Source: an uncultured Bacilli bacterium
GTDB lineage: Bacteria; Bacillota_I; Bacilli_A; RF39; UBA660
Direction of reading: 5' to 3'
NCBI GenBank assembly: GCA_947628915.1
Contig: CANRBR010000002.1
Location: 1 to 46,184, forward strand
Length of the DNA: 46,184 bases
Position numbers and translations under genes: made by a program. The first letter of the stretch is position 1. Every line of letters begins with the position of its first letter. Positions 5,905 through 44,253 of this stretch are shown here, piece by piece. A model generated the notes under the pieces. The model searched no databases. It was not told the DNA's origin and was given only the letters and a program-made list of their open reading frames with translations.

Positions 5905-6162
5905 CTATTCTTCTTCTTTATTATATTCAGCAAATATAGCATCCTCAAACATTTTTCTTGTTTCTGCATTTATAGGATGGGCTATATCGTGATATTCCCC
6001 TTCAGCATTCTTTCTACTTGGCATTGCAATAAATAATCCATCTTTTCCTTCAATAATTCTAATATCGCGAATTACAAAGCAATCATCTAGTAAAACTGAA
6101 GCTATTCCTTTCATTCTAGTATCATCATTTTTCTTGTGAACATTGACTGACGTTATTTTCAT
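5905..6162 (-). CDS. spoVG: Septation protein SpoVG
   Basis: 85-aa ORF. MKITSVNVHK...CFVIRDIRIIEGKDGLFIAMPSRK...YHDIAHPIN is near-canonical SpoVG. Confidence 0.95.
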   Translation of the reverse strand: MKITSVNVHKKNDDTRMKGIASVLLDDCFVIRDIRIIEGKDGLFIAMPSRKNAEGEYHDIAHPINAETRKMFEDAIFAEYNKEEE

Positions 6163-6214
6163 AAAAAAGCATCTCCTTCCGTTATCATTTCACAACATAA
6201 GTATATAATAAATA

Positions 6215-6242
6215 TTTTAAAAATGCAAGTTTTTTTGCATTT
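6215..6242 (-). terminator. Possible weak terminator of the 7813..6440 operon
   Basis: AT-rich 8-bp stem AAAUGCAA/UUGCAUUU followed by a U-rich tract on the minus strand. Confidence 0.3.
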
Positions 6243-6267
6243 ATATTAAAAAATATTCTACTCGTGA

Positions 6268-6342
6268 AATGAAAAAGTAGGAAGAAATGAGCCATGTCCA
6301 TGTGGGAGTGGTAAGAAATACAAAAAGGGTGGTGGTAAATAA
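6268..6342 (+). pseudogene. Remnant of a SEC-C zinc-motif coding end, a diverged copy of the secA 3' terminus
   Basis: The frame reads [24 protein letters not shown] with a TGA immediately upstream and no start codon. Its nucleotides align with the last ~70 nt of secA (23381..23450, opposite strand), which encode [23 protein letters not shown]. Confidence 0.6.
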
Positions 6343-6439
6343 AATAGTAATCCCTTATAAATAAAAGAATTTACATTTACAAACAAATTTATAATAATTT
6401 AAAAACATGTCATCTTAAATAGATAGATTACTAATAATT

Positions 6440-6895
6440 TTACATTTTATATATTTTTCTTTTGATTGTTTCATCTTCCATAGATTTTTCAAGTCCAAAC
6501 ATTTCATCAATATTGTAATCATCCTCTGAAAAATCTTCTATTATGTCTTCATAAGGGTATTCTCTAATGGTTGATAAATAAAAAGCTGCGTCGTCTACTA
6601 ATGCCTTTAAAAAAGCAAGCTCTTTATCATTTAATAAATCATTCTTACATGAAATATTTCGCATATTAAAATCGGTACACTTAGATATTTCATAATCACC
6701 ACTTATATTTTTCATTTTTTCATAATAAACTTTTGTTGCTATTTTTTTTGTATCTAACAAATCTTTTTCTTTTACATACTCAAATATGCTAAAAAGCACT
6801 TCTAATTCCTCTATATTATATTTATTGAAAAATATTTCTAATTCTTCATCATTCATGACTTTTTCATTATCATCCATATCTAATATTACAAACAT
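6440..6895 (-). CDS. Highly acidic hypothetical protein, third gene of the DinJ-Nudix/MazG operon
   Basis: 151-aa ORF beginning 2 nt after the MazG-like stop. D/E-rich, with no motif I recognise. Confidence 0.55.
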   Translation of the reverse strand: MFVILDMDDNEKVMNDEELEIFFNKYNIEELEVLFSIFEYVKEKDLLDTKKIATKVYYEKMKNISGDYEISKCTDFNMRNISCKNDLLNDKELAFLKALVDDAAFYLSTIREYPYEDIIEDFSEDDYNIDEMFGLEKSMEDETIKRKIYKM

Positions 6896-6897
6896 TT

Positions 6898-7200
6898 TTA
6901 TACTCCTTTTTTTACAAAAATACCATTTTTCTTTACATAAACTCTTTTGGCATTTTTTTCAATCTTATTTACAATTTCCTCTTCTAAATTTATTCCTAAT
7001 ATCTCAGATATACCCATTAAGTATATAGCCACATCTGCTAATTCTTCACCTAAATCATCTTTTTTATTTTCCCAAGCTGAATATGCCTCAGATAATTCAC
7101 CATATGCTAAACAAAATTCTACATTTAAATCTGTAACATTGAACCCTTTATTAACTTTATTTTCATACACTTTTTTCTGTAATTCTACTAAATCTATCAT
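6898..7200 (-). CDS. MazG-like nucleoside triphosphate pyrophosphohydrolase (small all-alpha type)
   Basis: 100-aa ORF with the metal-binding motifs YGELSEAYSAWE and LGEELADVAIYL typical of the MazG/YpjD-type fold. Confidence 0.8.
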   Translation of the reverse strand: MIDLVELQKKVYENKVNKGFNVTDLNVEFCLAYGELSEAYSAWENKKDDLGEELADVAIYLMGISEILGINLEEEIVNKIEKNAKRVYVKKNGIFVKKGV

Positions 7201-7201
7201 A

Positions 7202-7813
7202 TTAATCCTCCATTTCGTTTTTTTTGTTTCTATAATCTTCTATAAATTTTTTTATTAAAAATTTTGATAAAATGATATCTGCATCTGCCAAATCATAATC
7301 TAGTAATTCTTCTATATCAACCCATTTGTATTCAGAATGTATATTTAATTTAAAATCTCCTTTTATATAATCACATTCATATAATTTTAAATCTACTATA
7401 TGTCCAGGATATTCACATATGCTGTGAGTAATGTAATCCTTTATATTTGTTTCAATACCATATACTTCATCAAATGCCCTTTTTAATGTTTTTTTCTCAT
7501 CTTCAAGACCTACTCTTCGCCCTCCAGGAAATTCCCATTTACCTTTTAAATCATCATCCTTATTTCTTCTAGCTATCAAACATTTCCCATCTTTCATAAT
7601 TAATGCACATACGACATCTAATATTTTTTTATTTGGAACATTGTTTGTTATTTCAAAAGGTATTCCATTTTTTTTAACTACCTGTTTTAAAAATAAATTA
7701 ATAGCTGAACTCATAGATAAACCTAAATCCGTTAAAACCATAGTAGCTTCTTTTTTAACATTACTATCTACTTGTATATTAATAGCGCTAGTTTTGTTAT
7801 CCATATCTCTCAC
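7202..7813 (-). CDS. Fusion protein: RelB/DinJ ribbon-helix-helix antitoxin domain plus MutT-like Nudix domain with a degenerate Nudix box
   Basis: 203-aa ORF. Residues ~10-56 (INIQVDSNVKKEATMVLTDLGLSMSSAINLFLKQVVKKNGIPFEI) align with the DinJ N-domain. Residues ~65-190 contain GKWEFPGG. The Nudix box reads GGRRVGLEDEKKTLKRAFDEVYGI. Confidence 0.8.
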   Translation of the reverse strand: MRDMDNKTSAINIQVDSNVKKEATMVLTDLGLSMSSAINLFLKQVVKKNGIPFEITNNVPNKKILDVVCALIMKDGKCLIARRNKDDDLKGKWEFPGGRRVGLEDEKKTLKRAFDEVYGIETNIKDYITHSICEYPGHIVDLKLYECDYIKGDFKLNIHSEYKWVDIEELLDYDLADADIILSKFLIKKFIEDYRNKKNEMED

Positions 7814-7860
7814 CTCATAAAGTATGTTATCACTAAAATTTTAATAAGTCAATATGATTC

Positions 7861-7886
7861 TACAATTTTACTACAATTTTACTACA
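7861..7886 (-). promoter_or_regulatory. Tandem 11-bp direct repeat (2.4 copies of TACAATTTTAC), candidate RHH operator
   Basis: Exact tandem copies at 7861-7871 and 7872-7882 plus TACA, ~50-70 nt upstream of the DinJ-Nudix ATG. The period is about one helical turn. Confidence 0.35.
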
Positions 7887-7900
7887 TCTGTTCAAAATTC

Positions 7901-7937
7901 AATAAAAAATGATGAAACATAACAATCATCATTTTTT
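7901..7937 (-). terminator. Intrinsic terminator of rluB
   Basis: Stem AAUGAUGA/UCAUCAUU with a 10-nt loop, followed by UUUUAUU on the minus strand, 4 nt after the rluB stop. Confidence 0.6.
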
Positions 7938-7940
7938 TAC

Positions 7941-8684
7941 TTAACCATTCTTTTCTCCATATAGTTTTTTAACTTCTTTAATACTTAACTCTCTATATTC
8001 TCCAGATTTAACTCCATCTAGTGTTAAAAAGGCAACGCTTTCTCTTTTTAATTTGAGTACATCATAACCAATAGCCTCAAACATTTTCTTAACTTGATGA
8101 TTGCGACCTTCGTGTATAATTAACTCTACTACACTGGTGTTAGTCTTTTTATCTATCCTAAGTATTTTGCCTTTACACTTACTAGTCTTTTTACCATCTA
8201 CTATAACTCCGTTTGAAAGTACTTTTAATTCTTCTTTAGTTATTAATCCTTTTATTTTTGCTACATATACTTTTTCTATATTATTTTTAGGATGAGTTAA
8301 ATAGTTAGTCAAATCTCCATCGTTTGTAAGTATAAGTAAACCTGTTGTATCATAGTCAAGTCTTCCAACAGGATAAATTCTTTTATCTGTATTAATTAAA
8401 TCAACTACTGTCTTTCTACCTTTATCATCACTAGAACTTGTAACTACTCCTCTTGGCTTATTTAATAAATAGTATACTTTATCCTCTTTATCACTCAAAG
8501 GATTTCCTTCTACTTCTATAAAGTCACTATAATCTGCTTTATATCCTAACTCTTTTATTACACTTCCATTTACTTTAACTTTGCCCTTACTAATTAATTC
8601 TTCTGCTTTTCTCCTAGAACAGTATCCTTTACTTGCAATAATCTTTTGTAAACGTTCCATAAAATCACCAAAAACATTATACAT
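7941..8684 (-). CDS. rluB: 23S rRNA pseudouridine synthase, RsuA/RluB family with an S4 domain
   Basis: S4 motif RLQKIIASKGYCSRRKAEELI and catalytic motif VGRLDYDTTGLLILTNDG. It follows spmB as in B. subtilis. The true start may be the ATG at 8660 (MERLQK). Confidence 0.85.
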   Translation of the reverse strand: MYNVFGDFMERLQKIIASKGYCSRRKAEELISKGKVKVNGSVIKELGYKADYSDFIEVEGNPLSDKEDKVYYLLNKPRGVVTSSSDDKGRKTVVDLINTDKRIYPVGRLDYDTTGLLILTNDGDLTNYLTHPKNNIEKVYVAKIKGLITKEELKVLSNGVIVDGKKTSKCKGKILRIDKKTNTSVVELIIHEGRNHQVKKMFEAIGYDVLKLKRESVAFLTLDGVKSGEYRELSIKEVKKLYGEKNG

Positions 8685-15631: not shown

Positions 15632-15752
15632 AAAAAAATACTCAAGATAACCTGAGTACGAAAGTTATCTTATAGATCTAGCTTTACCACCAAATTTAAT
15701 TGGTTGGTGTGACTTCATTGGGCTAGTCCCTCCATCACTCTTTATAAGATGT
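15632..15752 (-). promoter_or_regulatory. SAM-I (S-box) riboswitch with expression-platform terminator
   Basis: The minus strand reads UCUUAUAAAGAGUGAUGGAGGGACUAGCCCAAUGAAGUCACACCAACC...GGUGGUAAAGCUAGAUCUAUAAGA, matching the S-box core. It is followed by the hairpin AAGAUAAC/GUUAUCUU and a U7 run, immediately 5' of metK. Confidence 0.85.
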
Positions 15753-15801: not shown

Positions 15802-15972
15802 TTAATATGTAAATCGATCATTCTTTTCTAAATCCTCAAATAATTCTTCAATATTATTATAACTTTTATACTTTTCTGGATGTTTTTCCATATCTACTAA
15901 TTCTTTAAAGGTTTCTTCCAATTCCTCTAAAGTAAAATATTCTAATAAATCAGTTTTTTCTAAATTTAACAC
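15802..15972 (-). CDS. Possible small acidic protein (56 aa, GTG start)
   Basis: Not in the ORF track because it is under 60 aa. AGAGGTGGA SD lies 5 nt before the GTG. Translation: (M)LNLEKTDLLEYFTLEELEETFKELVDMEKHPEKYKSYNNIEELFEDLEKNDRFTY. No family recognised. Confidence 0.3.
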   Translation of the reverse strand: MLNLEKTDLLEYFTLEELEETFKELVDMEKHPEKYKSYNNIEELFEDLEKNDRFTY

Positions 15973-16975: not shown

Positions 16976-17094
16976 ACTTCACCACCACCAATAAGATTAT
17001 ATCATATACTGATAAATATTATCTATAAATTAAACTATTAATTTAAATTTTTTTTGTGTGTGCTACAAAATATTTTAACGATACTCTTAATAAC

Positions 17095-17127
17095 GAAAAA
17101 ACCTAGAAATATCAACAATTTCTAGGC
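17095..17127 (-). terminator. Intrinsic terminator of the rplM-rpsI operon
   Basis: 9-bp stem CCUAGAAAU/AUUUCUAGG followed by a U6 run on the minus strand, 18 nt after the rpsI stop. Confidence 0.7.
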
Positions 17128-17144
17128 TTTTAAAACTGTAAAAA

Positions 17145-17558
17145 TTAACGTTTTGAGAATTGAGGTGCACGACGAGCAGCTTTTAAACCTGGTTTCTTAC
17201 GTTCTTTAGCTCTTGGGTCACGAGTAACAAGTCCAGCTTTCTTTAATATTTTTCTATAACTATCTTCGTTTGCTTCATTTGCCTTATCATATTCAAGTAA
17301 AGCACGAGTTATACCTAAACGGATTGCTCCTGTTTGACCGCTTGCTCCACCACCAGATACTTTAACTTCTATATCGAAAGTGTTTTCATTATTTGTAGCT
17401 ACTAAAGGTTGTTTTAAATCCATTACATAAGTTGCATATGGCATAAATTCATTAACATCTACACCATTAACAGTTATTTTACCACTTCCAGCAGTCATTT
17501 TAACTTGAGCAATTGAAGACTTTCTTCTTCCTGTTCCTATAAATACTTTCTTTGCCAT
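17145..17558 (-). CDS. rpsI: 30S ribosomal protein S9
   Basis: 137-aa ORF with GTGRRKSSIAQV near the N-terminus and the C-terminus ...KKPGLKAARRAPQFSKR. Confidence 0.97.
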   Translation of the reverse strand: MAKKVFIGTGRRKSSIAQVKMTAGSGKITVNGVDVNEFMPYATYVMDLKQPLVATNNENTFDIEVKVSGGGASGQTGAIRLGITRALLEYDKANEANEDSYRKILKKAGLVTRDPRAKERKKPGLKAARRAPQFSKR

Positions 17559-17569
17559 GTCTTCCCTCC

Positions 17570-18004
17570 TTATTTAACTTTCATTTCTACTGGCTTTTGT
17601 GCCATATGAGGATGTTCACTACCCTCATAAACAAATAATTTCTTAATTACTTGTCTACCTAATCTAGTGTGAGGTATCATACCTTTAACAGCTCTTTCAA
17701 TCATCTCAACTGGATAATTTTCTCTCATCTCTTTTGCAGTTCTTTCTCTTAATCCTCCAGTATAACCTGAATGGTTATAATAAATTTTATCTTCTAATTT
17801 ATTTCCTGTTAGATTAACTTTTGAAGCATTAATTACTATTACATAATCTCCACAATCGATATGTGGTGTGTAAGTAGGTTTATGCTTTCCGCGTAAAACA
17901 TCTGCTACTTTAGTTGCTAGGCGTCCTAAACTAACACCTTCAGCATCTATAACATACCAATTACGCTCTACTGTTTCTTTTTTTTGCATAAATGAATTTT
18001 TCAT
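17570..18004 (-). CDS. rplM: 50S ribosomal protein L13
   Basis: [18 protein letters not shown] is characteristic. Start set at [10 protein letters not shown] (18004, SD GGAGAAAGG). The track's 24-aa 5' extension lacks an SD. Confidence 0.95.
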
Positions 18005-18081
18005 AAATTTTTCCTTTCTCCAATACATATAGCAAGTTTTCCCAAGACTTACTAAATGTGGGATTAAATGTACCAACTAAA

Positions 18082-18110
18082 ATAATACTAAAAAATACTA
18101 AAAAAGTCAA
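18082..18110 (-). promoter_or_regulatory. Predicted promoter of rplM-rpsI, followed by a ~70-nt leader
   Basis: TTGACT-17 nt-TATTAT on the minus strand. The leader at 18005..18075 could be an L13-type autoregulatory leader, which I cannot verify. Confidence 0.45.
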
Positions 18111-18147
18111 TAAAAATATATTATTTTATTAACTTTTTATTACTATT

Positions 18148-19152
18148 TTACTCAAAATAATCAAGTTTCATATTCTCTCTTACACGCTTCATTACTTCTT
18201 CTGCTTTTTTCTTTGTTGCCTCTGTACCTTCTTTTAATATTCTATCTACTTCATCAGGTCTATCTTCATAATATTTACGTCTCTCTTGTATTGGTTTTAA
18301 AAATTCTATAATATTACGAGCAAGTTCTTTTTTACAAAATACACAGCCTCTTTCACCCTTTTTACATTCGCTGCACACATCCTCTATATTTGGATTTTTA
18401 ATTAATTGGTGGTAGTAATATACCATACAAATATCAGGATTTGCAGGGTCATCTTTTCTAAGTTTATTAGGATCTGTTTTTGCGTCCATTACTTTTTTAG
18501 TAATAGTTTCCTCATCATCTGATAAATATATGCAGTTGTTAAGTGATTTACTCATTTTCTCATTTCCATCTAAGCCTTTAATTCTAGGATTTTTACTAAG
18601 TACTGCTTCTGGAACATTAAATGTATCTCCATATATTTTATTAAACTTCCTAACTATTTCTCTTGCTTGTTCTAGGTGTGGCAACTGGTCGTCTCCAACA
18701 GGTACTATATTTGCATTAACACATGCAATATCTGCTGCCTGAGATACTGGATAACCTAAAAATCCATAAGTAATACTTTCCCCATCGTTACCAAATAATT
18801 CTTTTTTTTGAGCAACTTCAAACTTAGTAGTCGGATTTCTAAATAGACGAGATACTGACACTAAATTAGAAAAGTATACTGTTAGTTCTGCTGTTTCAGG
18901 AATAAGTGATTGAATATATATGTGTGATTGTTTTGGATCTATTCCAGCAGCAAGATAATCAAGAGCAACTTCACGGACATTATCTCTAACTTTCTTTGGA
19001 TTATCAAAGTTATCTGTAAGAGCTTGAACATCTGCTATTAATATATAAGTATCATAATCATACTGCATCTTTACTCTATTTTCTAATGATCCGAAATAGT
19101 GTCCTAAATGAAGTCTTCCCGTAGGTCTATCTCCTGTAAGTATCGTTTTCAT
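18148..19152 (-). CDS. trpS: Tryptophan--tRNA ligase
   Basis: 334-aa ORF with HIGH-type motif GRLHLGHYFG, KMSKS, and a Cys cluster C242/C260/C263/C270/C273. Confidence 0.95.
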   Translation of the reverse strand: MKTILTGDRPTGRLHLGHYFGSLENRVKMQYDYDTYILIADVQALTDNFDNPKKVRDNVREVALDYLAAGIDPKQSHIYIQSLIPETAELTVYFSNLVSVSRLFRNPTTKFEVAQKKELFGNDGESITYGFLGYPVSQAADIACVNANIVPVGDDQLPHLEQAREIVRKFNKIYGDTFNVPEAVLSKNPRIKGLDGNEKMSKSLNNCIYLSDDEETITKKVMDAKTDPNKLRKDDPANPDICMVYYYHQLIKNPNIEDVCSECKKGERGCVFCKKELARNIIEFLKPIQERRKYYEDRPDEVDRILKEGTEATKKKAEEVMKRVRENMKLDYFE

Positions 19153-19161
19153 AAGTCCTCC

Positions 19162-20352
19162 TTAATCTATATAATATTTTATCGTATCGTTAAACTCTAA
19201 TTCAGAGTTTTCAAGTATTGTTTTTATTCCAACAGAATCGCTATAATAATAAAGTTTATTCTTATATATATAATATAAGTAATTATCATTAAATTTTATA
19301 TCAGTTGTTGGAACATCTAGTAGATATTTATAAACATCTATATTATTTTTATCTACTCTATAAAGTTTATATGATATACCATCTTTTTTAAATAGATAGT
19401 AATATTCATCTGACTCTTTTACTAAATCATAATCAGTGAAATAATTATCTAGTGTTTCATAGTTAAAATATATCTCGTTATTTGCTTTAGTTTTATTCAT
19501 CTTTTCCCATTTTTTATTGTTATAGTACTTGATATATTTATCACTAGATACTAATTTTATTTTATTATTTTCTATATCTATCTCATATTGGTTTTCATTA
19601 TCTCTATCGTATATGTATAATCTATCATCAACTATACCTTCTATATAAGAATCATATGAAATATCTATTTTTGATTCTAACTTTTTAATCTCTTTTGTAT
19701 TTAGATTAACTATATAAAAATATTTAAATGTAAAATTACTTTCATAATCTGCTGTTATATAATATCCATTAATAAATGCATTTAATTTATTATTGTATAT
19801 ATCTTTTTCAAATAGTTTAACACTCTCTCCATTTATTAATAAACCATTATATGTAGTTATTGTAGTTGTTTTATCAAAATTATCAAATGTATTATATTTT
19901 ACTGTACCTACTATTTTAGTATCAAGAATTGTGTTATTAAAGTTATTACTATTATATAAATCTATGGATTCTACATATTTATCTAAATCGCTAAACTCTC
20001 CTTTAATAGAGTTATAATCATATAATATACCATCTTTAAAGCACATCATATCTGTATATAAAGAACTCTCTATAACAGGCAATACACATTCTACACTATC
20101 ATCTTTATATATAAATGCATTCTTTATAATTTTATTTTTATTTAAATTTTTATATATTCTAAAAGGATATACTTTCTTATTAAAAGTAAGTTCTATATAA
20201 TAATTATCTTTGTAATATTCTTTTATATTTATTTTATTATTATCTATATTTAATTTATAAGTAATACTATTAAAGTTTAATATTTGCTTTAATACAATTA
20301 TTAAAATAATTAATACTATAAGCAATATAAGCAATTTATATTTTTTATTCAT
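19162..20352 (-). CDS. Membrane-anchored hypothetical protein (N/Y/K-rich, repeated aromatic strand-like motifs; possible beta-propeller)
   Basis: 396-aa ORF with an N-terminal TM helix. Recurring motifs include RLYIYDRDN, EYYYLFKKDG, NYLYYIYKNKLYYYSD. It ends 9 nt before the trpS start. Confidence 0.55.
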   Translation of the reverse strand: MNKKYKLLILLIVLIILIIVLKQILNFNSITYKLNIDNNKINIKEYYKDNYYIELTFNKKVYPFRIYKNLNKNKIIKNAFIYKDDSVECVLPVIESSLYTDMMCFKDGILYDYNSIKGEFSDLDKYVESIDLYNSNNFNNTILDTKIVGTVKYNTFDNFDKTTTITTYNGLLINGESVKLFEKDIYNNKLNAFINGYYITADYESNFTFKYFYIVNLNTKEIKKLESKIDISYDSYIEGIVDDRLYIYDRDNENQYEIDIENNKIKLVSSDKYIKYYNNKKWEKMNKTKANNEIYFNYETLDNYFTDYDLVKESDEYYYLFKKDGISYKLYRVDKNNIDVYKYLLDVPTTDIKFNDNYLYYIYKNKLYYYSDSVGIKTILENSELEFNDTIKYYID

Positions 20353-20374
20353 AATACACCATACTACAAATTAA

Positions 20375-20818
20375 TTATTTATTTTCTGCATTTAAATTAT
20401 ATTTTCTTTTTTCACTCATCATGTATTCAGTAATCTCAGTTTCAATATCGTCCATAGCACGCTTAGATATATTAGATAAAAGTACTGTCTCTTTTACTGT
20501 ATCTATAAAAAGTCTTCCCCAAATAATTCCAGTATTTACTGTTAAATCATTAAACATATCTGGTGTGATTGCAAGATAAGTATATCCAAAGAATACTCTT
20601 TTTTGAGCGAGTAATATTCTTTTATTTGTTAGTGCGACTACAAATGTAGAAAATATATCTATAGATGATAATCCTTTTTGAGCAGCAAAAACAAACTTTA
20701 CTTCCTCTCCAGGATTTAAATACTTTTCTATAACTTTAGAGTGAGCCTTTAATCGCCAAGCAACAGTACCTGGATATTTATTTTTAAATTCTCTAACCAT
20801 TTCATAAACGCTTTTCAT
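20375..20818 (-). CDS. Bacterial PH-domain-like protein (YokE/bPH-like)
   Basis: 147-aa ORF. The pattern EEVKFVFAAQ...TNKRILLAQKR...ITPDMFNDLTV...GIIWGRLFID resembles bacterial PH-domain families. Assigned from memory only. Confidence 0.5.
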   Translation of the reverse strand: MKSVYEMVREFKNKYPGTVAWRLKAHSKVIEKYLNPGEEVKFVFAAQKGLSSIDIFSTFVVALTNKRILLAQKRVFFGYTYLAITPDMFNDLTVNTGIIWGRLFIDTVKETVLLSNISKRAMDDIETEITEYMMSEKRKYNLNAENK

Positions 20819-20864
20819 AACATCACCTAACTATTATTATATCAAATATATTAAAATTATCAAC

Positions 20865-20895
20865 AAAAAAATAGTATAACTTTACGCTATACTAT
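20865..20895 (-). terminator. Putative terminator overlapping the stop of the double-thioredoxin gene
   Basis: Stem AUAGUAUA/UAUACUAU followed by a U7 run on the minus strand. Confidence 0.45.
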
Positions 20896-21749
20896 GATTC
20901 TTTAATAAATCCTGCCTTAGTAAATTCTCTTACCAACTGTGAAATAGTTCTTTCGCCAGAGAAATAACTACTTACTTTATTATTTTTTACAATTAGTATT
21001 AATGGTGTGCCTATTGAACCATCATTTACATAGTCTTCATCATCATAACCAATAGTTCCTAAACTCTTAAAGAATTTACCATTTTCATCATCAGTCATAT
21101 CATCCATAGTTAAATAATTAATAGTAATATTATAGTCGCCAGCTACAGAATTAAGAGCAGGTTTAATTGCTTGACAGTGTGGACAAGTAGTTGAACCAAC
21201 AACTATTATATGGTCCTTTTTATCGCTAATTAACTTAGTATATTCATCGTAATTAATGAATGTTATATTCTTTTCAGCACCATATTCTGCATCTTCAGGA
21301 AGTACTCCAGCACCTTTTAAGAATTCTACATACTCTTCACCTTCAACATATCCAGTTTCTGTATCGATAACTTTGCCATTTTCTACTACTACAGTAGTTG
21401 GAGTAGAGTGTTTTGGCATTTCTAGTTTTTCAAGTAACTCATTTCTTTGTTTTTTAGCTAGTTTAGATGTATCTACATAGTAGTAATCCATGTCGTACTC
21501 TTCTGATATAGACTCAAGTATTGGAGTTAACATAGAACACCAACTACATTCTGTACTTGCATAATAAATAACTGTTCTTTCTTTTGAGTTAAATGCTTTA
21601 TTAAATCCTTCCATTATCTCATCTTGTTCACTATTAGTAATTGTTCCATTACTTTTCAAAGTATCGACTACAAATATTCCTATTAACACTAGTGCGACTA
21701 CTGATAATACTACCGTTAATATAATTGATATTTTCTTTTCTTTTGACAT
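20892..21749 (-). CDS. Membrane-anchored protein with two thioredoxin-fold domains
   Basis: 285-aa ORF with an N-terminal TM helix and two CxxC active sites (CSWC and CPHC), each in a Trx-like context. Confidence 0.75.
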   Translation of the reverse strand: MSKEKKISIILTVVLSVVALVLIGIFVVDTLKSNGTITNSEQDEIMEGFNKAFNSKERTVIYYASTECSWCSMLTPILESISEEYDMDYYYVDTSKLAKKQRNELLEKLEMPKHSTPTTVVVENGKVIDTETGYVEGEEYVEFLKGAGVLPEDAEYGAEKNITFINYDEYTKLISDKKDHIIVVGSTTCPHCQAIKPALNSVAGDYNITINYLTMDDMTDDENGKFFKSLGTIGYDDEDYVNDGSIGTPLILIVKNNKVSSYFSGERTISQLVREFTKAGFIKES

Positions 21750-21822
21750 ATAAATCCTTCTTTCTTGTTACAAACTAATTATATCATATTTTTGTTACTT
21801 TCTACAACAATATCCTCATATT

Positions 21823-22432: not shown

Positions 22433-23317
22433 TCAAAGTTTTCTTTGTTCAATCAACTTATTTTCATTAACTTGCTTTTGCAATAACTCTAAATCTTTAA
22501 GGCTTTTATTATCTTTTAATGCTTCCATTTGTCTTCTTGCTGAATTATTTAATCTAATAAGTCTTTCTCTTTGAGGGACTTTTTCTTCTATCAATAGAGC
22601 ATTAGTATTTTGTAAATTATTTAATATTACTAGGTGTAATAAATCTGTATAATCTCTAATATTGCCTTTTAAGTTAGGATTCTTATCTCTCCATTCTTTA
22701 GCAGTCATCCCAAATAATGCTACATTCAATACATCAGCTTCTTCTGCATACACAAATTGTTTTTGTTTTTCAGTTAAAGTTGGAACTATGCATTTCTTAA
22801 TTGCATCTGTATGAACAACATAATTAACTTTTGATAAAAGTCTAGTTGCACTCCACTCAACTTTATATTGATAAGCTTCATTTGTTTTTAATCTTTCGAA
22901 TTCAGTTATTAAGTATAATTTAAATTCTGGTGACAACCAACTTGCAAACTCAAAAGCAATATCTGGATGAGCAAAAGTTCCACCATTATATCTTCCTTGT
23001 TTTGAAATTACGCCAATGGCATTTGTTGATGTAATCCATTTTTTTGGAGTCATCACAAAAGCGTTTGTCCCTGACTCATTTTTAAACCCATCGAATTCGA
23101 CGGAATTAAAATTTGGATTATTTATATTCTCCCACGTTCCTAAGAAAAGAATTGTATTTGTAGTTCTCATCCAGTTTTGAATTATATAGTCAGTTCTTTC
23201 TTTATCTTTATATCGTGCTAAATCGGTCAAAGAAATATAATTTACATTACCAACTCGCATTATTCCAATTTTATTTTCTTTTACAACAATTTCAGTTGTT
23301 ATTATATCTGTTTTCAT
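22433..23317 (-). CDS. KilA-N domain-containing protein
   Basis: 294-aa ORF. The N-terminal region NYISLTDLARYKD...IQNWMR...GTFAHPDIAFEFASWLSPEFKLYL is typical of KilA-N DNA-binding domains. Strong SD AGAGGGGGA. Confidence 0.75.
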   Translation of the reverse strand: MKTDIITTEIVVKENKIGIMRVGNVNYISLTDLARYKDKERTDYIIQNWMRTTNTILFLGTWENINNPNFNSVEFDGFKNESGTNAFVMTPKKWITSTNAIGVISKQGRYNGGTFAHPDIAFEFASWLSPEFKLYLITEFERLKTNEAYQYKVEWSATRLLSKVNYVVHTDAIKKCIVPTLTEKQKQFVYAEEADVLNVALFGMTAKEWRDKNPNLKGNIRDYTDLLHLVILNNLQNTNALLIEEKVPQRERLIRLNNSARRQMEALKDNKSLKDLELLQKQVNENKLIEQRKL

Positions 23318-23380: not shown

Positions 23381-25870
23381 TTATTTACCACAACAATTTT
23401 TGTATTTCTTACCAGACCCACAAGGGCATGGTTCATTTCTTCCTATTTTCTTAACTCTTTTAGGTGCAGCAGTTTTAGTCTTATCTTTTGTTTCGTTAGT
23501 AACGCCTTCTGCTACTTTCTTACGTTCACTATTTTGTCTTACTTCTGCTTTAAGTAAATAAGTAGTTGTTTGGGCATCTATCTTGGCAAGTAATTCATCA
23601 AATAATTCAAAACCTTCAGTTTTATACTCTCTAAGAGGATTGTTTTGGGCATAACTTCTTAAGTGAATTCCCTCTCTCAAATGAGCCATAGTATTGATGT
23701 GTTCCATCCAATGTGTATCTATAACTCTTAAAGTAATTGCTTTTTCAAATTCATTTGTTACTTCTTCAGGTATCTTCTTTATCTTTTCTTCATATTCTAA
23801 AGATAATCTTTCATATAAGTAATCTACTATCTCTTCAGAACTCTTATATTCTATTTCATCAAATGTAACTTTATGTTTTAATAAATCGTTAATAGTTTCT
23901 AATATCTCCGATTTATCATTTCTACTCAAATTATCGTTTTCGTCAAAGTGTGAATAAACTACATCACTTACATAATTTCTAAAGGTTTCTAAAGTAGATT
24001 CGTGTATTGATTCCATATCAAGTATTTGATTTCTCTTATCATAGATAATATTTCTTTGTTCGTTTATAACATCATCGTATTCAAGTAAAGTCTTTCTCAT
24101 ATCGAAGTTATTTCCTTCAACTCTTTTTTGAGCAGATTCTATTGAATTAGATAACATTTTATTTCTAATTGATACATCTTCACTAAATCCAACTCTTTGA
24201 AGCATTAATTTAGCCCTATCAGTACCAAATCTTACCATTAAGTCATCTTCAAATGATACGCAGAACTGACTCTCTCCCGGATCTCCTTGACGCCCCGAAC
24301 GACCTCTCAACTGATTATCTATACGTCTTGATTCATGTCTTTCAGTACCGATTACAAATAATCCTCCGAGTGCTTTTACATCATCAGTTAATTTAATATC
24401 TGTACCACGTCCAGCCATATTGGTTGCTATTGTAACTGCACCTTTTTCACCAGCTTTAGCAATTATCTCTGCTTCTCTTGCATGGTTTTTAGCATTTAAT
24501 ACTTCGTGTGGTATTCTCATTTTCTTAAGTCTTTCACTTATAAGTTCACTAGTTTCAACTGCTATTGTACCAACTAAAACTGGTTGCCCTGTTGCGTGGC
24601 GTTCTTTTATTTCGTTTACTATTGCTTTATACTTACCTTCTTTAGTTGCAAATAACAAATCTCCATAATCTTTACGAATAACAGGTTTATTAGTTGGAAC
24701 TTGTATAACATACATGTTATATATATCCCTAAACTCTTCTTCTTCTGTTTTAGCAGTACCTGTCATTCCTGATAGTTTTTTATACATTCTAAATAAGTTT
24801 TGGAATGTTATAGTAGCTAAAGTTTTAGTCTCTTCATTTATTGTTACTCCTTCTTTAGCCTCTATTGCTTGGTGCAGACCATCTGAATAAGCACGACCTT
24901 GCATAAGTCTTCCTGTAAATGGGTCAACTATTACTATCTTACCATCGTTTACTACATAATCTACATCTAGTTTCATCGCATAGTTTGCCTTTAATGCTTG
25001 ATTTATAAAGTGAACTAAATTAGTATGACTTATATCGTATAAGTTGTCAACACCAAAAGCCTTCTCTGCTTTTTCTATACCTGTTTGGTCTAGTGAGACT
25101 GCTTTAGTCTTTTCATCGTATATATATCCTTCATTTTCTTTTAGACTTTTAGCAAATTTATCTGTTTGCATATATAAATTAGCAGACTTCATAAATCCAC
25201 CTGATATAATAAGTGGTGTTCTTGCCTCATCTATTAATACTGAGTCTACCTCATCAATAATTGCAAAATTATATGGTCTAGCAACTCTATCTGATGCTTT
25301 TACTACCATGTTATCTCTTAGATAGTCAAAACCTATTTCATTATTAGTTGAATATAAGATATCACAGTTATATTGCTCTTTCTTTTCACTTGGAGTAAGT
25401 TCTCTTAAGTTTACTCCAACAGTAAGTCCTAAAAATCTATATATTTCACCCATCCAGTTTGCATCACGGTTAGCTAGGTATTCATTAACTGTAATTATAT
25501 GTACACCCTCACCAGTTAGCGCGTTTAAATAAGCAGGCATTGTTGAAGTTAATGTTTTACCTTCACCTGTTTTCATCTCGGCAATATTACCATAATGTAT
25601 TGCAAGACCACCTAGTATTTGTACATAGAATGGTTTTTCTCCAATAACACGGTAAGCTGCTTCTCTTGCAGTCGCAAATGCCTCTACTTTTATATCTTCT
25701 AGAGTCTCTCCATTTGCAAGTCTTTCTTTAAATTCTTTAGTTTTATCCTTTAATTTTTTATCAGATAATTTAGAGTACTCTTCATCTAAAGCAATTACTT
25801 CATCAGCAATCTTTTTAAACTTTTCTAACTCTTTATTTTCATGATTAAATAAGTTTTTAAATAATCCCAT
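23381..25870 (-). CDS. secA: Preprotein translocase ATPase SecA
   Basis: 829-aa ORF with Walker A MKTGEGKT, the [19 protein letters not shown] motif and the C-terminal SEC-C zinc motif [15 protein letters not shown]. Confidence 0.98.
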   Translation of the reverse strand: [829 protein letters not shown]

Positions 25871-44119: not shown

Positions 44120-44253
44120 CTTGTATCCTCCCTTCGCCTATATCCAGTATAGACATGCTCCGTGTAAAAACCCAATACTAAGGTTATTTTATATTGCAAC
44201 TTAACCTGGTGTATCAGCAACCTCACACATCAACGCAACGTCACACATATTGA

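Follow-up and report, generated by a model that had tools for sequence, protein, structure and literature searches.

A three-gene cassette of about 1.5 kb, carried on the minus strand of the core chromosome of an uncultured gut Bacilli bacterium (RF39, UBA660; assembly GCA_947628915.1, contig CANRBR010000002.1, positions 1 to 46,184, the 46-kb stretch called the window here), encodes a protein in which a ribbon-helix-helix (RHH) head of the RelB/DinJ antitoxin type is fused to a Nudix domain that lacks two catalytic glutamates (gene 1, Table 1). It is followed by a MazG-like gene (gene 2) and by a gene for a very acidic protein (gene 3, family fam2), with gaps of 1 nt (7201) and 2 nt (6896-6897). 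The three genes are proposed to constitute a single autoregulated operon that is self-contained and can relocate as a cassette; the cassette is abundant in gut metagenomes. The catalytic loss is fixed, the operator is conserved and shared with toxin-antitoxin (TA) pairs, and the cassette is modular and occupies different sites in close relatives. The explanation that best accounts for the observations as a whole, and that is considered somewhat better than evenly probable, is that the fusion is an autorepressor whose dead Nudix domain would sense a pyrimidine (deoxy)nucleoside triphosphate ((d)NTP) and gate hydrolysis of deoxycytidine triphosphate (dCTP)-type pools. An earlier note, made from the letters of the window alone, had described three tightly packed genes, a DinJ-type RHH segment running into a MutT-like Nudix fold with two substituted box glutamates, a 100-amino acid MazG-type enzyme with intact ExxE/ExxD motifs, and no RelE/YafQ-like toxin; all of these features were recovered in the comparisons that follow.

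Gene 1 matches Pfam NUDIX_4 (E 1.8e-12) and NUDIX (E 1.5e-6). Its residues 59-186 match Nudix models, with the Nudix fold itself at about residues 59-173 and an extra C-terminal helix, not seen in standalone relatives, at residues 174-199. The best curated model for this part is NudG, "pyrimidine (deoxy)nucleoside triphosphate diphosphatase" (88 bits, below the equivalog cut-off), and the best model overall is the PADLOC candidate PDC-S07 (model PDLC04899, E 1.8e-34). When gene 1 was modelled alone with AlphaFold2, as the earlier note had suggested, the Nudix fold was predicted confidently, with a mean predicted local distance difference test score (pLDDT) of 85.6 for the protein and values above 90 across most of the domain. 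The nearest structures found by Foldseek are BdRppH, E. coli Orf135/NudG (2rrk), the B. fragilis cytidine triphosphate (CTP) pyrophosphohydrolase and M. smegmatis MutT2 in its dCTP- or 5-methyl-dCTP-bound forms, with target-normalised template modelling (TM) scores of 0.78-0.86 for the best matches. NudG (2rrk), the best PDB match by sequence (3e-18), is listed as a 5-methyl-dCTP pyrophosphatase (PMC5389931). The best models and structures for the domain are enzymes acting on CTP, dCTP or 5-methyl-dCTP.

The Nudix box of gene 1, GGRRVGLEDEKKTLKRAFDEVYGI (beginning G-RRVGL-E and ending R-A-F-D-E-V-Y-G-I), departs from the consensus GX5EX7REUXEEXGU in having lost the Glu of RE and also the second Glu of EE (RE to RA, EE to EV). 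In MutT the equivalents of these two glutamates, E53 and E57, act as general base and metal ligand. Because both are lost, the domain is most likely a non-catalytic binder. Judged from the homologues, the loss is fixed and not accidental. Nearly all of the 120 closest homologue clusters (of 911 matches) carry R-[A/S/T]-[F/Y]-x-E-[V/I/L/A], about 7 have a further box substitution, and RE or EE is found in none, while RE..EE is retained without exception in the nearest relatives that stand alone or are fused differently (36-52% identity). E101, R109 and E113 (MutT E44, R52 and E56) are nearly invariant across the fusion and its intact relatives, as is KWEFPGG, and an Arg-Arg pair stands in the fusion in place of the Lys after GG. 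An origin by duplication of the intact Nudix found in some cassettes was rejected, as the dead domain is 47-52% identical to HNH-linked Nudix domains, compared with 29-35% to the in-cassette one. A gene-fusion artefact is excluded by the presence of the same protein in hundreds of independent assemblies. Separately, P0131, a standalone degenerate Nudix of 140 amino acids, resembles the cassette's intact Nudix over its first ~38 residues and the fusion's dead domain over the remainder, and may be a recombinant of the two Nudix paralogues or a chimeric assembly.

The RHH head occupies residues 1-58 of gene 1. Residues 6-62 match Pfam RelB (E 6.5e-13), and the protein matches NCBIfam RelB_DinJ (TIGR02384) with 66.5 bits (cut-off 45.65) and PDB DinJ (9lew) with E 6e-7; homologues are named only "RelB/DinJ family antitoxin" by NCBI. 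The head shares 57% identity with DinJ proteins from gut metagenome contigs and as much as 68% with other short RelB/DinJ proteins, and its DNA-reading strand, TSAIN(I/V)QVD, is identical in the fusion and in the DinJ proteins linked to the same operator (see below). The Pfam match ends at profile position 58 of 82 and the Nudix fold runs from residue 59 on, so the C-terminal toxin-binding tail of the antitoxin is missing. No YafQ or RelE relative was found in the operon or elsewhere in the window by tblastn with the YafQ of an operator-sharing pair as query. The start of gene 1 was placed at 7804 because of the ribosome-binding site upstream and the conserved N-terminus of the homologues, M(D/E)NKTSAIN; the GTG at 7813 is the mechanical start of the open reading frame (ORF) only. 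As a side observation, a 56-amino acid ORF at 15802-15972 (minus strand), just upstream of an S-adenosylmethionine (SAM) riboswitch (Rfam, 15667-15750, minus strand) and metK, is similar to DinJ antitoxins solely over their toxin-binding tail at the C-terminus (tblastn E 7e-7). The ORF carries no RHH and has no neighbouring toxin gene, and from its sequence may be a decayed DinJ-YafQ module.

Table 1. Features of the cassette and its control region in the window.
Feature	Positions	Strand	Basis
Operator: three direct repeats TGTAGTAAAAT / TGTAGTAAAAT / TGTAG, 11-bp period, just upstream of the -35 box	7860..7886	-	
Predicted sigma-70-type promoter: TTGACT, 17-nt spacer, TAACAT, TG extension	7824..7852	-	promoter scan
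Ribosome-binding site GAGGTG, 6 nt before the ATG at 7804	7811..7816	-	read from sequence
Gene 1, 200 aa: RelB/DinJ RHH and NudG-like Nudix fold	7202..7804	-	domain matches, AlphaFold2, Foldseek
Gene 2, 100 aa: single-domain MazG-like NTP pyrophosphohydrolase, metal-binding residues intact	6898..7200	-	Pfam, PDB profile matches, alignment
Gene 3, 151 aa: acidic all-helical protein of the lineage-restricted family fam2	6440..6895	-	family alignment, structure model

The operator pattern occurs once in the window, against 0.01 matches expected by chance. In 14 of 14 independent loci the repeats precede the first cassette gene (fam2 in the gene order of CAG:433), with TTGAC kept at a fixed distance from them; further upstream the sequences are unrelated, and similarity starts exactly at the operator. 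A terminator-like hairpin lies directly 3' of the last gene in several loci. Thus, the unit consists of operator, promoter and two to five genes. A metagenome collection was scanned with the operator and -35 pattern, which gave 65 stretches whose downstream ORFs were classified by BLAST against references. About 50 of them hold the cassette, in five gene orders (types A to E, Table 2), and the MazG-like gene is the sole cargo found in all of the non-TA types behind the operator.

Table 2. Genes found behind the operator.
Type	Genes	Loci
A (as in the window)	fusion, MazG, fam2	7 complete
B	fusion, intact Nudix, MazG, long fam2	3-4
C	fusion, MazG, fam2-like (x210), intact Nudix, deaminase	6
D (most frequent; human gut)	fam2, fusion, MazG, in some a further fam2, 203-aa protein of unknown kind	21 complete
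E	a single mixed arrangement	1
F	intact MazG-like gene alone, in three sequence variants; fusion absent in cis	4
G	DinJ protein of the ordinary kind, 95-112 aa	4

In two of the four type G loci (L050 and L089, the others being L053 and L072) the DinJ gene is followed by a complete YafQ toxin gene; the one YafQ tested matches Pfam YafQ_toxin with 99 bits. Because the same operator fronts genuine DinJ-YafQ pairs, the head and operator of the cassette were probably borrowed from such a module, in which case promoter, operator and RHH head were kept while tail and toxin were replaced. The four DinJ loci likely represent the ancestral module. As in DinJ-YafQ and RelBE modules, the triple TGTAGTA operator lies at the -35 box, and a leading repressor gene is followed by a translationally coupled cargo; unlike them, the cassette has neither the toxin-binding tail nor a RelE/YafQ toxin and carries a Nudix domain, a MazG-like protein and an acidic protein instead. 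The DinJ of L. paracasei represses by cooperative binding at an operator that overlaps the -35 box (PMC9592637), and we infer that gene 1 would bind the predicted operator and repress its own transcription.

The fusion is confined to one lineage. An exhaustive HMMER search of 1.84 billion cluster representatives, following the earlier note's call for a domain-architecture search, recovered one full-length RHH-Nudix cluster at 50% identity, and no independent RHH-Nudix fusion was found among its best 150 matches. The other long matches are Nudix domains fused to HNH, SRA-HNH, HIT or HAD domains, or tandem RelB proteins. With one genome scanned per species, the fusion was found in 12 further species, giving about 13 with that of the window, all of them uncultured gut Bacilli known from rabbit, deer, rumen or human metagenome-assembled genomes or as "Clostridium sp. 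CAG:433". It is common in the metagenomes of this lineage, with single clusters on up to 76 contigs. The fusion was not found on the IMG/VR contigs or GenBank phages searched; relatives of the MazG-like protein with 40-46% identity occur on large viral contigs. Literature searches returned no paper describing an RHH/RelB/DinJ-Nudix or a MazG-like/Nudix/antitoxin architecture.

Related loci hold the fusion together with the MazG-like gene and most also a fam2 member, and the genes are co-conserved as a movable unit in which fam2 is present in most loci, not all (zero to two copies per cassette; absent in L014 and L058). The fusion shares 83-97% identity with its counterpart in the window, MazG 63-99% and fam2 30-92%; thus, constraint is strongest on the regulator and weakest on the acidic protein. 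Each locus has its own flanking genes, except in two syntenic pairs (L010/L012 and L005/L006), and a transposase remnant lies directly upstream of the cassette in one locus. Relocation is seen when L005, L006 and L007 are compared with window positions 6413-7908, 17049-21811 and 22439-22595. In these three, the cassette (86-96% nucleotide identity) lies in the opposite orientation, flanked by the homologues of positions 21811 and 22439 of the window and thus some 14 kb away from where it sits there, and not between rluB and spoVG. The genomes are syntenic apart from this, so that either the cassette itself or a segment of 14 kb has been rearranged.

Gene 2 qualifies by sequence as a MazG-family protein. 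It matches Pfam MazG-like (PF12643) with 29.8 bits (cut-off 27), and E35, E38, E52, E53 and D56 are invariant in 12 of 12 aligned orthologues. Its family profile matches 4qgp, SSO3215 (1vmg), dCTP pyrophosphatase 1/RS21-C6, phage MazZ and integron iMazG in the PDB. It shares the fold signature and acidic metal-binding motif of these single-domain enzymes, although the similarity is modest (E 1e-4 to 1e-7, and about 1e-4 for dCTP pyrophosphatase 1), and a dCTP-type substrate would be one candidate. To our knowledge, control of a single-domain MazG enzyme by an RHH-Nudix repressor has not been described.

The product of gene 3 has an isoelectric point of 4.3 and 38 Asp and Glu residues, and is modelled as an all-helical protein of six helices (pLDDT 74.8). 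It belongs to no Pfam, NCBIfam, PADLOC or PHROG family, and neither Foldseek against the PDB and BFVD (E <1) nor a PDB profile search gave a match; across these family and fold searches together, nothing below E ~0.3 was accepted, a weak match to SWIB (E 0.004, below the cut-off) being dismissed. The earlier note's statement that the protein has no recognisable motif therefore stands for known families, but relatives do exist: fam2 accompanies the fusion in most loci and is a fast-evolving family of 136-308 amino acids, with a domain that is sometimes tandemly duplicated and with variable position and copy number. In P0367 (327 amino acids, from one ENA contig of 2383 bp), fam2 is in frame with RHH-Nudix in a single ORF, in the CAG:433 order. 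The ORF may be a true fusion by deletion, in which case joint action of the two proteins would be hinted at, or else an assembly error.

An indirect link to cytosine nucleotides and to conflict systems is suggested by the relatives of the cassette's parts. The closest intact relatives of the Nudix domain (47-52% identity) are fused to, or overlap with, type IV-like HNH nucleases: in P0136 (420 amino acids) an intact Nudix is fused to SRA and HNH domains, and at L029:859-2225 an intact Nudix gene overlaps by 4 nt a gene for a 327-amino acid HNH protein with a match to type IV methyl-directed restriction enzymes. In S. suis, co-localisation of PDC-S07 with type IV restriction-modification (RM) systems has been reported for 23 of 23 genomes (bioRxiv 10.1101/2025.08.29.672906), and the partnership of Nudix and type IV restriction appears to be uncharacterised. 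The fusion is a derivative and not a member of PDC-S07, a standalone Nudix of ~130 amino acids: intact matches of PDLC04899 keep the catalytic motif. NudG (Orf135) and MutT2, together with PDC-S07, give the best sequence and structure matches; the fusion differs from them in lacking RE..EE and in being joined to an RHH.

Type C cassettes end in a deaminase of 170-195 amino acids (L015:6689-7276; L057, reoriented, 1992-2555; also L035 and L066). It matches dCMP_cyt_deam_1 with 57 bits, and its zinc-binding core matches the anti-phage dCTP deaminase model NCBIfam NF041025 with 52-59 bits, far below the 400-bit cut-off, PADLOC dCTPase with E 3.6e-15 and, less well, ComEB with 24-27 bits. Acting in concert, dCTP pyrophosphatases and a deoxycytidine (dC) nucleotide deaminase would convert dCTP to deoxyuridine monophosphate (dUMP). 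The known dCTP-deaminase defence has this outcome, and dCTP deaminase and dGTPase are established cases of defence by nucleotide depletion (bioRxiv 10.1101/2021.04.26.441389). The resemblance to those systems lies in the deaminase core of type C and in a predicted net chemistry that removes dCTP. It differs in that only the core matches, with no kinase domain, and in that the window cassette has neither deaminase nor dGTPase.

The mechanism regarded as best supported runs as follows. Gene 1 would dimerise through its DinJ-type RHH, occupy the three TGTAGTA repeats beside the -35 box and repress its own operon, with head and operator both taken over from a DinJ-YafQ module. The toxin-binding tail of the antitoxin would have been swapped for a NudG-like Nudix domain, which lost two catalytic glutamates while keeping its fold and the other box residues. 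This dead domain would bind, without hydrolysing it, a pyrimidine (d)NTP, plausibly dCTP or 5-modified dCTP, and binding would alter cooperativity or occupancy at the operator, the domain thereby serving as co-repressor or derepressor in the way that the toxin does in a TA circuit. The MazG-like hydrolase would then be made only upon that nucleotide signal. In sister cassettes, where MazG has an intact NudG-like Nudix and a dC-nucleotide deaminase beside it, dCTP-type nucleotides would be taken to monophosphates and dUMP; the acidic helical protein would be an accessory partner. Small-molecule sensing by the dead domain is proposed by analogy: non-catalytic Nudix domains bind small molecules in multidomain proteins, a transcription regulator among them (PMC5389931). 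Of the two readings offered by the earlier note, that of a nucleotide-sensing repressor has been strengthened by the operator and its sharing with DinJ-YafQ pairs, the fixed glutamate loss and the invariant MazG cargo, with sensing itself still conjectural.

Several points weigh against this mechanism. The fusion is conserved so uniformly that conservation cannot pick out a ligand pocket, and the dead Nudix domain might just as well mediate contacts between proteins. The window cassette holds neither the deaminase nor the intact Nudix, its one enzyme being the MazG-like protein, and the dC-nucleotide link therefore rests on sister cassettes and on the modest similarity to dCTP pyrophosphatase 1. 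In the type F loci (L038, L084, L062 and L086, with the operator at L084:2617, reoriented) a solo MazG-like gene is followed by a GT2 glycosyltransferase, with no RHH-Nudix gene in the 2-7 kb of contig available. Thus, the repressor is not obligatory in cis, and these MazG genes would have to be regulated in trans by a fusion or DinJ protein encoded elsewhere. Flanking genes are mostly housekeeping. The physiological role may be phage-related nucleotide conflict, pool sanitation or addiction, with a slight leaning to conflict with phages rather than sanitation. Conflict is favoured by building blocks that come from conflict systems, the mobility of the cassette, the fast evolution of fam2 and the defence-like deaminase of sister cassettes, and is disfavoured by the housekeeping flanks and by MazG and fam2 matching no PADLOC defence model. 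When 150 flank proteins from 16 loci were run through PADLOC, matches were scattered (AbiD in three loci, type IIG RM in one), and as there was no baseline for enrichment a defence-island context is not claimed.

A wider proposal, entertained tentatively and as one package, is that a DinJ-YafQ module has been rewired into a new kind of system against phages, which depletes nucleotides or edits their pool. Here, dCTP-directed hydrolases (MazG, in some cassettes with Nudix and deaminase) would have taken the place of the RNase toxin, the dead 5-modified-dCTP-type Nudix would replace the toxin-binding tail and act as an infection sensor, for instance of modified pyrimidine dNTPs made by phages or of a dNTP surge, and the fast-evolving acidic protein would be the interface with phage factors. 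The second reading of the earlier note, a non-canonical TA or defence-type module, gains from the relocation, the PDC-S07 ancestry and the deaminase; its strict TA form is weakened by the solo MazG genes and the dispensable fam2.

That form, which is judged rather unlikely, holds that a growth-inhibitory MazG-like or acidic cargo is bound and repressed by the RHH-pseudoNudix protein in a TA-like or abortive-infection module, and that loss of this labile, antitoxin-like protein upon phage infection or loss of the cassette would free the effector. The RHH, the operator and a gene order in which a DNA-binding protein comes first with a translationally coupled cargo 1 nt on are those of type II TA modules, the cassette relocates between close relatives with a transposase remnant beside one locus, the single ORF of P0367 hints at physical partnership, and nucleotide depletion is an established defence for dCTP deaminase and dGTPase (bioRxiv 10.1101/2021.04.26.441389). 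However, intact solo MazG-like genes, in three distinct sequence variants, stand behind the same promoter with no fusion, fam2 is missing in L014 and L058 and doubled in others, neither MazG nor fam2 has a PADLOC match, and the family is restricted to one lineage, unlike typical promiscuous TA modules.

It is unlikely that the dead Nudix is instead a scaffold, bridging RHH dimers on the repeats or docking MazG or fam2 and thereby filling the co-repressor part of the toxin, within an operon for constitutive, self-limiting house-cleaning. The toxin supplies cooperativity between antitoxin dimers in a TA system (PMC9592637), non-catalytic Nudix domains can contact protein domains (PMC5389931), and both the helix at residues 174-199, absent in standalone relatives, and the existence of a fam2-RHH-Nudix single ORF would suit such a role. 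Retention of E101, R109, E113, the Arg-Arg pair and KWEFPGG is, however, what would be expected if triphosphate and base binding had been preserved, which is no more than suggestive. PutA and BirA combine enzyme and repressor activities. A bifunctional protein of that kind, with a Nudix domain still active through a non-canonical catalytic set, is very improbable: of the five charged residues conserved in the box, three are still present and the modelled fold appears intact, but the equivalents of MutT E53 and E57 are small or hydrophobic in every close homologue examined while all intact relatives keep RE..EE, and the separate intact Nudix of some cassettes would be redundant.

The cassette belongs neither to the TA modules nor to the NrtR regulators, although its circuit logic resembles both. 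NrtR likewise joins a Nudix domain with a degenerate box to a DNA-binding domain and, as summarised in PMC5389931 citing Huang et al. 2009, is presumed to be a dead-enzyme ligand sensor. It differs from the cassette protein in having a C-terminal winged helix in place of an N-terminal RHH, a Nudix domain of the ADP-ribose pyrophosphatase group in place of the NudG/MutT pyrimidine-(d)NTP group, and nicotinamide adenine dinucleotide (NAD) metabolism genes in place of a MazG enzyme as cargo. A pseudo-enzyme sensor fused to an RHH thus has precedent as a concept; new are the RHH-Nudix architecture and the rewired TA control unit. The cassette offers a natural example of such a unit (promoter, operator and RHH head) reused for a non-toxin enzyme cargo, in which the toxin's regulatory role has apparently passed to a pseudo-enzyme domain. 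If ligand sensing is true, the RHH-Nudix class would join the few Nudix-based regulators as a compact nucleotide-responsive switch. If phage protection is true, nucleotide-depletion immunity would extend to MazG and Nudix pyrophosphohydrolases, and the unvalidated, type IV restriction-linked PDC-S07 Nudix family would be tied to conflicts over modified-cytosine nucleotides.

On one side, the cassette of the window is flanked by rluB, spmA/B and a dacB-like gene, and on the other by spoVG, yabP, yabQ and divIC, with ribosomal protein operons further along. The possibility that the site at spoVG is cleanly empty in sister strains was rejected: sister strains without the cassette directly beside spoVG carry a 634-amino acid SEC-C gene there, and the difference reflects deletion of that gene in the window and does not show that the cassette is absent. 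Positions 6268-6330 (plus-strand frame, ending ..NEPCPCGSGKKYKKGGGK*) are a 3'-end relic of a SEC-C-motif gene. In L023, L024 and L026, which are 97.5-99.5% identical around spoVG, the full gene encodes at least 634 amino acids, ends in GRNDPCPCGSGKKYKKC and is read towards the cassette side, and its body has been lost by deletion from the strain of the window. A further resemblance of the relic is to the 3' end of an 829-amino acid secA-like ORF at 23381-25870. No Rfam family was found within 6100-8100; besides the SAM riboswitch mentioned above, Rfam matches an S10-Clostridia ribosomal leader at 44134-44241 (minus strand).

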